Positions 8,342-46,393 of a stretch of DNA of 50,125 bases are shown here, piece by piece. Source of the stretch: Candidatus Melainabacteria bacterium RIFOXYA2_FULL_32_9. GTDB taxonomy: Bacteria; Cyanobacteriota; Vampirovibrionia; Gastranaerophilales; UBA9579. How positions within the stretch are numbered: position 1 is the first letter of the stretch; every line of letters begins with the position of its first letter. The DNA lies in the NCBI GenBank assembly GCA_001784615.1, contig MFRQ01000153.1, positions 1 through 50,125 on the forward strand. The letters run 5' to 3'. The notes beneath the pieces are model-generated. The model was not told the DNA's origin. It saw only the letters and a list, made by a program, of their open reading frames with translations, and searched no databases. The translations under genes and the position numbers were made by a program.

Positions 8342-8902
8342 TTAAGAATTTATTATTAAATTTGATAACCAGTCAGGCAATGGGGCTAAAGGCACATCAT
8401 TGGGACTAGCTCCATCTTTCCATTTATAAATATTTCCACTAGCATGAAGGCTTCGTGGTGCTATAATCCAGTCATAATCACTCTTAAAGTCAAGTCCTGG
8501 CCTAAAAGCATTTCTGGTCATAATTCCTGATTTAGGATATTTAAAGTAATAATGCATTCCATTTCCACCGCTTATTGCAGTTACTGTTTTGGGGAATTCT
8601 CCATATTGCGCTGTAAGTACGCTCAATAACTCATCCCCATCATCTCTTGGATCGACATCTAAAACAACGATTCCTGATGCCATGCCTGTTGCTATTCCTA
8701 TATTAGAGCCCATCCACAGTTCAGACATTTCTTTTATAATTTTAATATTATCTGTTGCATCGCTAATCCCATTCTGAGTTTTGGGATGTTTACCAACACT
8801 TTTACAGTCTTGTTTTCCACAGGTACATTTGCTATTCATTACTGAATAAACAGGGAAAACTGAGTAGCCGTACGCTATATACTGATATATCTGATCTAAC
8901 AC
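8342..8902 (-). CDS. stand-alone PrimPol (archaeo-eukaryotic primase superfamily) domain protein
   Basis: 186 aa. AEP motif I VVLDVDPRDDG (DxD), motif II GGNGMHYYF (sxH), motif III region GLDFKSDYDWIIAP. Cys-rich insert KCTCGKQDCKSVGKHP. No PriCT or helicase domain follows. Confidence 0.75.
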   Translation of the reverse strand: MLDQIYQYIAYGYSVFPVYSVMNSKCTCGKQDCKSVGKHPKTQNGISDATDNIKIIKEMSELWMGSNIGIATGMASGIVVLDVDPRDDGDELLSVLTAQYGEFPKTVTAISGGNGMHYYFKYPKSGIMTRNAFRPGLDFKSDYDWIIAPRSLHASGNIYKWKDGASPNDVPLAPLPDWLSNLIINS

Positions 8903-9190
8903 TTATTTACTCCACTTACAATAGATTTTCTAAACATTTTGGCTGAGATTCTATTAAATCTAAATTTTCTTACTTTCTCATAATAAATTAATCCGATTAT
9001 TAACCAATCTTTTAGGATGTAATTAATATTTCAGCGCTATCATTGTGATAAGGAAGAAATATGAGAATCTCGTTATTGAAGAAATTATTAAATTATTGTG
9101 TAAGTTTTTAGCAATAATTATACAAATATTGTTTTTATATAAATAGAGGAAGAAATTCCTTTTAGATAAAAATGCGATTTGGGAAGGGAA

Positions 9191-10153
9191 ATGGTCAGGA
9201 ATATTAATTACCCTCAATATTTCTACCAATCAGGCAGGACAAATCAAGATTTGCCTGCTTATAATGAGTTTCGCTTAAAATATGATAAGCATAATGCCAC
9301 GCTAGATCCTAAATTAGCCAGAGATATTGAGGATATTAAAGATATTCTTGATATTTTTGCTCTACAAAAAAAAGCTGATAGTGAAAATAAGTCAAAGGCA
9401 TTATTGAGCCCTGTACCATTTGTTAGAAAACTTGACGGTGCACAGGAATCTTTTAAAGAAGGTGACATTCTAAAAAGCTTAGGTAAATTTGGACTTTTGG
9501 CAGCTTGCTTACCTGAAGATACAAGAGATGTAAATAATGCTGTTAACCAGATTCTTGGAAAAGGAGATAAAAGCATTCCTTATAGTTATCAACCTAAGTT
9601 TTCTTTCTTCAGGGGGACTTTATTTGAATCTGGACTGAAAAAACTCAATGATTCACAAAATAGTACTTTGCAATCTATAGGTAAAAAAATATATAAAGCT
9701 GATAAAACTCTTTATGACACCCAATTAGGTCTAAAATTCCTAAAAAAATTGGGCTGGCAAGACGACTTGGCCAAAAACACCTCACGTATTGATTTTATGG
9801 ATAGAGTAATACAAGGATCAAAAATTAAAGGAAGTTTAATTTCAAAAATACTCGGCAAATCTATGCTCAGAATTCCAACTCTAAGCATAATAACCCTTTC
9901 AATATTGGAAATACCTTCCATAATAAAAGCTTTTACCCAAAAAGACAATTCAAAAGATAACCTGATAAATGGCACAAAACAAACAGTAAAATCGGGAATT
10001 AATGTTTCATCATTATTATCCGGTGGAGCTGTCTTAGGTGCTATAGGTCAAAGCCTGCTAGGTCCTGTTGGCTCTTTAATAGGTTTAGGATTAGGATCCT
10101 ATTACGGCTCTCAGACTGGAAAGTTTATAAACGATAAAATAGACAGAATCTAA
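9191..10153 (+). CDS. hypothetical membrane protein with C-terminal glycine zipper
   Basis: The track start at 9179 is TTG. ATG 9191 preceded by GGGAAGGGAA is more likely. 320 aa, no family recognised. C-terminus has IPTLSIITLSILEIPSII and GGAVLGAIGQSLLGPVGSLIGLGLGSYYG. Confidence 0.6.
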   Translation: MVRNINYPQYFYQSGRTNQDLPAYNEFRLKYDKHNATLDPKLARDIEDIKDILDIFALQKKADSENKSKALLSPVPFVRKLDGAQESFKEGDILKSLGKFGLLAACLPEDTRDVNNAVNQILGKGDKSIPYSYQPKFSFFRGTLFESGLKKLNDSQNSTLQSIGKKIYKADKTLYDTQLGLKFLKKLGWQDDLAKNTSRIDFMDRVIQGSKIKGSLISKILGKSMLRIPTLSIITLSILEIPSIIKAFTQKDNSKDNLINGTKQTVKSGINVSSLLSGGAVLGAIGQSLLGPVGSLIGLGLGSYYGSQTGKFINDKIDRI

Positions 10154-42527: not shown

Positions 42528-43781
42528 TTACTTATTAACTGTACGATATACAGCCATATGTTCAGGGTTAATAGATAACCAGGTGAATGAAGTTTCTTCA
42601 CTTTCATCAACCTGTGGCATGCTAATAACAAAAGTACCACCGTATCTACCACGAGAAAACTTAACAACATTCTGTTCAGAAAGTCTTTGAAGTGCTTTTC
42701 TAATGGTATTGCTACTAACTTTTAATTGTAAAGCTAATTTACTCATTGCAGGAAGCTTATCGCCAACTTTATAATTCTCTTTAATCAAGAGCTTCATATG
42801 ACGCTCAACCTTTTCATAGTTATAAAGACTTGCTTCTAAAGCTGAAGCAAAAATTGAATCTGCGTCACTACCATAAAACTGAGCTTCTGATGGTAAACGC
42901 ATAATAAATGTACCGTATCTACCTCTTTTAGACTTAAGGATGCCTTGCTCGACCAAGCGTTTCATAGCATCATGAACTGTCTTAATACTCACTTTTAAAA
43001 TATCAGCTAGTTCAAAGTGTGACGGTAATTTATCATTAACCTGAAATCTCTGGCCAATTAATTCTTTTAGATCACGCTCAACTTGATTTACAAGAGTATC
43101 TGATTCAAGATTTGCATCAATTTCGTCGCATTCGTCAATAACAGGTATATCTTTTAGAATCCAGTTAGCTTTGTTACCCCTGCAACCTTTTGATTCAATA
43201 ATACCAATGCTTGCAAGATATTCTAAAGCCAAACGTGTAGTATTTGGTGCACTACCGATAACTTTAGCTAATTCTCTTGATGAAGGAAGTGGCTCACCAA
43301 CCGAGTATGAATTTTTAACTATGATTTTCTTTAATGCCACTATTGCCTGTTCACGTTTAGAAGTTTGTTTTCTAAGTTCTGCCGCTGGACTACTAATATC
43401 TCTGACAAAAGTACCAATACGCTGTTTAGATTCAACATGCCCTTTATCTTCAATAAATCTAATTGCAGTTTGGACAGTACCGATACTAACTCCAAGATGT
43501 GCAGCAAGAGCGGCTTTTCTTGGTAGTAAATCATTCTTTTGAAGTTTACCTTCTTTTAATCCCGCTTCAATCCACTGAATTATCCAATCAGCAAGAATAT
43601 TATCTTTTGTTCTGATTGAAGTTTTAAAATCAGGAAGCTTATTTGGAAGCTCACTAATCTCAATTCTGCGCAAGTTTGCTTTTGTAATGATTTTCTTGTT
43701 GTTCAAATTCAATAATTCAGCATTTGCCATAACACTGTCCTTCACTTCTTCCTGTGACCTCAATTCATCTGCGATTACCAT
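42528..43781 (-). CDS. transcription-factor-like protein with four tandem GntR-type winged-helix domains
   Basis: Four repeats of the xLPSxRxLAxxLxVSxxTVxxAxxxLxxxGxxxxxxGxGxF pattern: LLPRKAALAAHLGVSIGTVQTAIRFIEDKGHVESKQRIGTFV; PLPSSRELAKVIGSAPNTTRLALEYLASIGIIESKG; KLPSHFELADILKVSIKTVHDAMKRLVEQGILKSKRGRYGTFIM; KLPAMSKLALQLKVSSNTIRKALQRLSEQNVVKFSRGRYGGTFVI. Confidence 0.8.
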   Translation of the reverse strand: MVIADELRSQEEVKDSVMANAELLNLNNKKIITKANLRRIEISELPNKLPDFKTSIRTKDNILADWIIQWIEAGLKEGKLQKNDLLPRKAALAAHLGVSIGTVQTAIRFIEDKGHVESKQRIGTFVRDISSPAAELRKQTSKREQAIVALKKIIVKNSYSVGEPLPSSRELAKVIGSAPNTTRLALEYLASIGIIESKGCRGNKANWILKDIPVIDECDEIDANLESDTLVNQVERDLKELIGQRFQVNDKLPSHFELADILKVSIKTVHDAMKRLVEQGILKSKRGRYGTFIMRLPSEAQFYGSDADSIFASALEASLYNYEKVERHMKLLIKENYKVGDKLPAMSKLALQLKVSSNTIRKALQRLSEQNVVKFSRGRYGGTFVISMPQVDESEETSFTWLSINPEHMAVYRTVNK

Positions 43782-43834
43782 ATATTTAAAACCTCCTGAC
43801 TTATACTTAACGAAATACCGTAATATTAAAATTT

Positions 43835-43932
43835 ATAGTAGTACAACAACGTAAACTGATAGCTTGAAATTAAGTCTGCCTGTTTCAGTGGTTATAGTCG
43901 ATAACTTAAGTTAGGTAATGGATATTACCAAA
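43835..43932 (-). repeat. left copy of 98-nt inverted repeat (upstream of the 4xGntR gene)
   Basis: The rc aligns without gaps to 45934-46031, 80 of 98 identical. The first 22 nt (TTTGGTAATATCCATTACCTAA) are identical. Confidence 0.85.
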
Positions 43933-44337
43933 TTTATTTAGCTTCCCTACCTACTTAAATATGTTGTATTTTTAAATAAGTATTCGTTGATAATAATAAA
44001 ACAAGAGCATGAAAAAAAATTGCTAAAATTTAAAAAAATATTAAGTACAAATTTTTTTTTACGTTATACAAAACAAAAAAAAATCCCAAACCAACCATAA
44101 ATATTGAGTAAAAAAAATCATAATTTATCAAAAACTTATTTTTTTATTATTAAGATTTTTTAATATCAACTAGAATTTTCATCTAAATGATTTTAATAAT
44201 CTTAATGGAAATTATAAATTCTGAAAGATTCATCTTATAAACCCAAACTAATAATGACAATACGCTGCAGCTCATTTCAGAAATAAATAAAAACTCAGGT
44301 TTCTGGAACAATATAGATAAAAAATAAATCTAAATAC

Positions 44338-45933: not shown

Positions 45934-46031
45934 TTTGGTAATATCCATTACCTAATTTAGGTTAACGATTAAAGCCACTGAAGCAGTTAGACTTAGTTTA
46001 AAGTTACCAGTTATCGTTGAAGCACTACTAT
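45934..46031 (+). repeat. right copy of 98-nt inverted repeat (upstream of the 91-aa ORF)
   Basis: See 43835-43932. Contains the palindrome GGTAAT-ATCC-ATTACC. Confidence 0.85.
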
Positions 46032-46117: not shown

Positions 46118-46393
46118 ATGGACAAAAAAGAATTAGTTGAACTTCTTCTAGAAAAAAAATTTGGCACTAAAAACCCGGCTGAAATTAAAAATATACTAGA
46201 AATTAATATTTTTGAGTCTTTAGACGATTCAGAAAATCCTCTTGGCATTGGAGTAGAAATTATTCTTGAAGATGAAAATGGAAACGAAATAAAAGAAGAG
46301 TATCAAATAAACAAAGAAGGTGTAATTTATTCCTGGGGAAACGCACCTGTTATTGATGAAAGAAGTCTTGAAAAGGCCCCAAAGTTAGATTAA
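46118..46393 (+). CDS. hypothetical acidic 91-aa protein
   Basis: ORF with AAGGAAAC upstream. No family recognised. Confidence 0.5.
   Translation: MDKKELVELLLEKKFGTKNPAEIKNILEINIFESLDDSENPLGIGVEIILEDENGNEIKEEYQINKEGVIYSWGNAPVIDERSLEKAPKLD

Follow-up and report, generated by a model that had tools for sequence, protein, structure and literature searches.

The window, that is, the whole 50,125-nt stretch of DNA analysed here, encodes a 417-residue protein (4xGntR) formed by four tandem winged helix-turn-helix (wHTH) domains of the GntR family, an arrangement that is far beyond chance. Judged by sequence comparison, it is a lineage-specific protein family conserved throughout the class Vampirovibrionia (Melainabacteria). 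We favour, with a probability of about 55%, the reading that 4xGntR is an effector-less transcription factor which, as a single chain with several wHTH modules, would bind a composite DNA element, regulate itself and control a small regulon.

Four winged-helix domains in one chain

In the classical layout of GntR regulators, a single wHTH reportedly precedes a C-terminal domain for effector binding and oligomerisation, which may be of the FCD, UTRA, aminotransferase-like, or YtrA-helix type, among others. These regulators act as homodimers on short palindromic operators, from which they are released by a small-molecule effector. The textbook rule of one wHTH and one sensor, with the dimer on a palindrome, is broken by a conserved sensor-less chain of four wHTH. 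The ORF and the parts of its product are the following.

42528 to 43781, minus strand: ORF of 4xGntR, 417 residues and stop (ORF listing; Pfam GntR in four stretches)
Residues 1-30: variable N-terminus, mean majority fraction 0.26
43602 to 43691, minus strand: residues 31-60, conserved basic N-terminal arm (alignment; majority fraction 0.62; pLDDT 80-87)
43389 to 43601, minus strand: residues 61-131, wHTH D1, signature LLPxK...GVSIGTVQNAIRxIEDxGxVESKQRIGT
43152 to 43358, minus strand: residues 142-210, wHTH D2, signature LPSSRELAK.IGSAPNTTRLALEYL...RGNKANW
42894 to 43103, minus strand: residues 227-296, wHTH D3, signature KLPSHxEL...LKVSIKTVHDAMKRL..QGIL.SKRGRYGT
42618 to 42824, minus strand: residues 320-388, wHTH D4, signature KLPAM.KLA..L.VSSNTIRKALQ.L...FSRGRYGGTFV
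42531 to 42617, minus strand: residues 389-417, conserved C-terminal tail, motif SFTWLSINPE..YR (alignment)

The ORF starts with ATG, and a GGAGG ribosome-binding site is located 9 nt 5' of this codon. The search with the Pfam GntR family (PF00392) gave E=2e-47 and 159 bits, the gathering cut-off being 27 bits, in four separate stretches. This was the result anticipated by the first-pass annotation, which had read four GntR wHTH in tandem directly from the sequence. By its wHTH the protein belongs to the GntR family, and it departs from the classical architecture of the family. The AlphaFold2 model, another check proposed at that stage, was built on 52 orthologues and also yielded four helix-helix-helix-strand-strand winged-helix units, at approximately residues 59-126, 142-209, 230-293, and 322-385. 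Its pLDDT was 78.9 and its pTM 0.57; given the latter value, the model is an uncertain guide to how the domains are placed relative to one another.

It had also been claimed that the chain lacks any effector or oligomerisation domain, and this was borne out by the domain map. Among the 25 Pfam matches listed there was no family other than wHTH ones. The NCBIfam models PdxR, LldR, HutC, PhnF, and others aligned through their N-terminal wHTH parts alone, four times each, and the full-length models of the FadR, HutC, and MocR types all scored far under their cut-offs. Outside the four wHTH the protein has a 60-residue N-terminal arm, linkers of 10-23 residues, and a C-terminal tail of 29 residues, so there is no space for an FCD, UTRA, aminotransferase, or YtrA-type C-terminal domain. 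In the orthologue alignment K34, L37, P50, F52, T58, K59, and D60 of the arm were invariant or nearly so, and W401, N405, and Y412 of the tail were invariant. The four domains share 32-48% identity in pairs, D3 and D4 being the closest.

By comparison with canonical regulators (FadR, HutC/NagR, MocR/GabR, and YtrA), each domain of 4xGntR is a typical GntR wHTH, and an inverted repeat of the GT...AC type is likewise present in the candidate operator described below. The differences are the number of wHTH, four per chain instead of one, and the lack of the C-terminal effector/oligomerisation domain, hence of an obvious ligand control or obligate homodimer. The YtrA subfamily contains the shortest GntR proteins, of about 120-130 residues, with one wHTH and two C-terminal dimerisation helices; 4xGntR, with 417 residues and four wHTH, falls outside it, and the YtrA-type structures 4r1h, 3by6, 2du9, and 2ek5 were aligned by Foldseek to single domains only. 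Considering that there is no effector domain, what controls the activity of 4xGntR would be its own abundance, partner proteins, or modification, and not a small-molecule ligand. The protein is probably monomeric.

Several proteins with three or four winged helices per chain were found among the top fold matches, namely SelB WH1-4, TFIIIC tauB, RPC34, and UFL1/DDRGK1. Their roles are RNA binding, eukaryotic Pol III initiation, and scaffolding; in SelB, the four WH lie C-terminal to an EF-Tu-like GTPase and bind the SECIS RNA. The best Foldseek match was precisely the C-terminal four-WH fragment of SelB (1lva, E=5e-6), and this, together with the presence of UFL1/DDRGK1 among the top matches, would suit tandem winged helices that bind RNA or proteins and not DNA. 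We consider such a role very improbable. The TM scores of these matches were 0.16-0.22 with 11-14% identity (0.16/0.22 and 11% for 1lva), 4xGntR has no GTPase domain, and the four known systems showed no sequence kinship to it (TM 0.13-0.22). Moreover, every domain is by sequence a bona fide GntR DNA-binding wHTH, in which the Thr and Arg/Gln/His of helix 3 and the Gly of the wing are conserved, as is typical of DNA readers.

A family conserved across the class

The best 120 database homologues were 351-441 residues long, nearly all of about 400-440, with 56-87% identity and, in most cases, more than 90% of the query covered; they came from independent contigs, and at least 120 full-length orthologues were counted. 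The identical 417-residue protein was present on 9 contigs from independent samples, including GCA_001786555.1, and 80 loci gave one unbroken tblastn match. The suspicion that single-domain genes were fused into this ORF by an error of assembly or annotation is refuted by these data, and the gene is genuine, as had been supposed.

A pattern scan of GTDB, with one genome per species, detected the gene in at least 131 species-level loci. Their labels were Gastranaerophilales, Vampirovibrionales (including Vampirovibrio chlorellavorus), Caenarcanum, and Melainabacteria. A few bins were labelled otherwise (Gammaproteobacteria, Clostridia, and Coleofasciculaceae), and we take them to be mislabelled because some of them (L003 and L014) share the same upstream element. 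The exhaustive HMMER search retrieved 533 representatives at 50% clustering, with full-length members down to 30% identity; among those of 30-45% identity, the nameable ones were again Gastranaerophilales. Experimental genetics hardly exists for Melainabacteria, and 4xGntR is one of the small number of regulators in this group that are both strongly conserved and lineage-defining.

The four domains were conserved about equally, with majority fractions of 0.69-0.78. The invariant residues were S99, G101, T102, Q104, and R108 with the wing SKQRIGT in D1; R169, N180, T181, and T182 with W207 of the wing in D2; K267, T268, and H270 with the wing RGRYG in D3; and N358, R361, and K362 with the wing RGxYGGT in D4. 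When D1-D4 were aligned to the GntR consensus, the invariants of each domain appeared to sit at the DNA-contact positions of the FadR type, at the start of helix 3 and in the wing. Recognition surfaces that are frozen yet differ among the four domains speak for as many distinct sub-sites or partners, and against redundancy.

This pattern also bears on the idea of an architectural or nucleoid-associated protein, or one of DNA bridging, replication, or segregation, whose four wHTH would bind or loop DNA at low specificity. Conservation across the whole class, with 55-60% identity between orders, the lack of an effector domain, and a variable gene context (see below) are in line with it, and so are the multi-winged-helix proteins TFIIIC tauB and RPC34 among the nearest fold matches and the faint Pfam matches to the DnaD_N and RepL HTH. 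However, each recognition helix has polar residues that are invariant and domain-specific, as if bases were read specifically. The protein also carries only a modest net charge (64 K+R versus 54 D+E), the fold matches had TM scores of no more than 0.13-0.22, and the DnaD and RepL matches are generic HTH overlaps under the cut-offs. A role of this kind is therefore unlikely.

The first-pass annotation had not recognised the architecture as described. For the Melainabacteria protein this stands, as no earlier description of it was found: a literature search on tandem or multiple GntR domains, or on GntR in Melainabacteria, gave nothing relevant, no characterised homologue was found in the literature or databases, and no PDB chain with tandem GntR domains came up in either the sequence or the fold search, the former giving single-domain GntR matches only. 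The tandem architecture itself is not unique. Proteins of about 390-470 residues made of GntR wHTH alone, that is, with at least three PF00392 domains and nothing else, as in 4xGntR, were found with five units in Streptomyces (e.g., WP_307527659.1 and WP_149824153.1) and with four or five in metagenomes. The repeats of these proteins most resemble one another, with 55-69% identity, and their identity to the domains of the Melainabacteria protein is just about 30-45%, from which it follows that the tandem architecture arose independently. In addition, the Streptomyces proteins are sporadic and have five units, whereas 4xGntR is class-wide and has four.

Several HTH modules per polypeptide are also found in Myb R1R2R3, the paired domain, and AraC/Rob, where a monomer reads adjacent, nonidentical sub-sites. 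The design would be analogous in 4xGntR, although folds and lineages differ. To our knowledge, there is no described example of a bacterial GntR protein reading sub-sites as a multi-module monomer. 4xGntR offers a natural system for the study of tandem winged helices on long composite sites, useful for the design of DNA binders.

The bipartite element upstream of the gene

Two kinds of noncoding sequence precede the gene, a conserved bipartite element and one copy of a repeat of about 98 nt.

43989 to 44028, minus strand: bipartite element, candidate promoter/self-operator; TAGCAA (44020-44025), N15/16, TTGTTTTATTATTATC (43989-44004)
43835 to 43932 (43822-43932 at widest), minus strand: repeat copy 1, between the conserved bipartite element and the ribosome-binding site
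45934 to 46031 (to 46044 at widest), plus strand: repeat copy 2, upstream of an orphan 91-residue ORF (46118-46393)

The repeat had been proposed as the binding target of the protein, a proposal that we discarded. The two copies, of about 95-98 nt, form an inverted pair with 79-80% identity, each oriented to its downstream gene and located 45-70 nt 5' of the start codon (of the 4xGntR gene and of the 91-residue orphan ORF, respectively). Both are missing at the orthologous sites of ACD20 (L083), whose protein is 87% identical, and the copy next to the GntR gene is missing in L081 (82% identical protein), with contiguous flanks in both cases. Since the repeat is absent from these two closest orthologous loci while their flanks are contiguous, it cannot be the ancestral operator. 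No Rfam match was obtained, no excess of RNA structure was detected in either copy (fold z-scores of -0.03 for copy 1 and 0.18 for copy 2), and the 80 related loci contained no further copies. By these comparisons the repeat is a recent, small, lineage-specific mobile insertion, apparently MITE-like, lying outside the ancestral locus.

The bipartite element, which lies upstream of this insertion, is a good candidate for the binding site, and a better one than the repeat. Its consensus is TAGCAA-N15/16-TGTTTT(A/T)AT..., it was recognisable upstream of 4xGntR orthologues from all orders, and in most orthologues it is found about 50-250 nt 5' of the gene. The motif search was performed with a two-block PWM at a threshold of at least 17 bits; the element preceded the gene in 62 of about 78 orthologous loci, and only 10 other sites reached this score in 1.75 Mb. 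In the window, the element of the 4xGntR gene scored 20.0, each of its blocks occurs once, and the sequence is 100% identical in ACD20. The form of the Vampirovibrionales is CTAGCAACAAA-N10-CTGTTTTAATATAAACAAGA, and it contains the palindrome TGTTT-N6-AAACA, which fits the GT-Nx-AC type said to be the generic GntR operator. In these GC-rich genomes the element is kept amid intergenic DNA that is otherwise not conserved. It is an asymmetric element of about 27-45 bp, and the starts of its boxes are 21 bp apart, equivalent to two helical turns, exactly so in three orders. In the gut clade its right arm and spacing differ, and the recognition helices are unchanged.

We also considered the element as a sigma-70 promoter, and this was rejected. 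Promoter prediction gave no sigma-70 consensus overlapping the element of the 4xGntR gene, and the distance from TAGCAA to the nearest -10-like hexamer, counted by hand, was 20-21 bp, more than a standard promoter allows.

According to the favoured reading, 4xGntR would bind the bipartite element as a monomer or pseudo-oligomer, with different GntR domains reading different boxes two helical turns apart (21 bp from start to start); the closely related pair D3 and D4 might take one arm of the palindrome each. The position of the motif upstream of its own gene suggests self-regulation. The first-pass annotation had conceived a monomer reading four half-sites, and part of this idea is retained: several different sub-sites fit the domain-specific helix residues and the long, asymmetric upstream element. 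As for the number of four half-sites, the DNA displays no more than two clear boxes, to which a palindromic extension is added in some orders.

Another possibility is that 4xGntR is a DNA-binding factor with its own sites elsewhere, and that TAGCAA-N15-TGTTTT is read by a different protein, either a dimer of the CRP/FNR/NtcA type or a special sigma factor, of which the 4xGntR gene would be a target. Sites of the CRP/FNR/NtcA family have a TGT-N10-ACA geometry, and the palindrome TGTTTTAATATAAACA has it as well. Furthermore, the element is located where a class II activator or a promoter element would be, no sigma-70 consensus lies over it, and it varies in the gut clade although the recognition helices are invariant. 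On the other hand, the presence of the element before this very gene throughout the class is the classic signature of autoregulation, an asymmetric element of this length is longer than a CRP-type site, and the exact spacing of two helical turns between TAGCAA and TGTTTT in three orders also speaks against another reader. On balance, we find this alternative doubtful, and we retain binding of the element by 4xGntR as the preferred reading.

A broader version of the preferred reading can be put forward only tentatively. 4xGntR might be a class-wide, ligand-independent master regulator, a single chain whose four wHTH modules would read an asymmetric operator of about 30-45 bp and control the protein itself along with a regulon in which orphan and mobile-element genes are found. 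If such a modular single-chain master regulator exists, the largest class of one-component wHTH regulators would gain a new way of recognising DNA, and four GntR modules would act in non-photosynthetic cyanobacteria as the modules of eukaryotic multi-module readers do.

Candidate regulon and gene neighbourhood

The same motif was found a second time in the window.

9106 to 9165, plus strand: second bipartite element; TAGCAA (9109-9114), N15, TGTTTTTATATAAATAGAGGAAGAAA; PWM score 22.7
9191 to 10153, plus strand: orphan 320-residue ORF, candidate regulon member, downstream of the second element

The score of 22.7 bits is to be compared with a maximum of 18.3 over 20 Markov shuffles. The element lies 30-85 nt 5' of the 320-residue orphan ORF, for which no Pfam match was obtained and whose product has a glycine-rich C-terminus. 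Three orthologues of this ORF (46, 40, and 38% identity) also have the element upstream, with the N15 spacing kept; this makes the motif the mark of a regulon or of a promoter class. Other strong PWM sites in the orthologue loci were located before further orphan proteins and before a gene that by eye is apparently an Orn/Lys/Arg decarboxylase. 4xGntR would regulate, besides its own promoter, a small regulon of mostly orphan genes, in part from mobile elements. The hypothesis can be tested directly, now that there are a candidate operator and a putative first member of the regulon.

Two of the three loci with orthologues of the 320-residue ORF adjoin phage or integrase genes, and for this reason the corresponding part of the window (9106-10153 together with 8342-8902) may be a mobile element. 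The ORF at 8342-8902 on the minus strand, beside the 320-residue ORF, is presumably a primase-polymerase.

A metagenome scan for TGTTTTAATATAAACAAG gave 67 matches, nearly all of them chance matches in unrelated DNA, the true self sites being only those of L105 and L113. The 55-kb metagenome contig L114 (5104-5664) contains an exact match to TGTTTTAATATAAACAAG, which is preceded at 14 nt by TAGCAA, one base less than the usual spacing, and followed 15 nt later by a 175-residue orphan ORF; no 4xGntR gene is present within 1 kb of it. This site could belong to an additional member of the regulon, or it could have arisen by chance. An element before the ribosomal protein S11 gene in L154 (contig Ga0208373_1097385, 1236 nt) was rejected as belonging to a chimeric contig, in which a Melainabacteria 4xGntR gene, represented by its promoter, 5'UTR, and first 12 codons, runs in frame into an S11 gene of Patescibacteria. 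The native S11 is a 193-residue form (P0314) without the Melainabacteria leader. The case shows that short metagenome contigs need caution.

Across the orthologous loci we found no conserved operon context for the 4xGntR gene. The order rpmB, 4xGntR, methyltransferase/TPR, malK is common to close relatives only. The lack of a conserved neighbourhood argues for a trans-acting regulator, not for a local operon repressor.

The sole recurrent neighbour was the gene of an HExxH protein of about 240 residues, without Pfam match and absent from the window, which was present in 32 of the 80 loci, all from the gut clade. It is located on the same strand, 22 nt downstream of the 4xGntR gene (loci L042-L079, e.g., L076 7210-7950), and the two genes are probably co-transcribed in that clade. 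It was also possible to see, 3' of the HExxH gene and before a 52-residue orphan ORF, a TAGCAAAAA...TGTTTT-like sequence (L076 8019-8312), which recurs in L047, L051, L053, L055, L061, and L078. This sequence, which coincides in part with a good TTTACC-17-TATAGT promoter, could be a further target or merely a similar promoter.

Finally, one clade has a three-codon mini-ORF (ATG ACA CAT/TAT stop) in the 5'UTR of its 4xGntR gene. The mini-ORF stands between a first ribosome-binding site and the real one, just before the latter; it is located at 3440-3490 in L005 and at 1100-1140, on the reverse strand, in L154.
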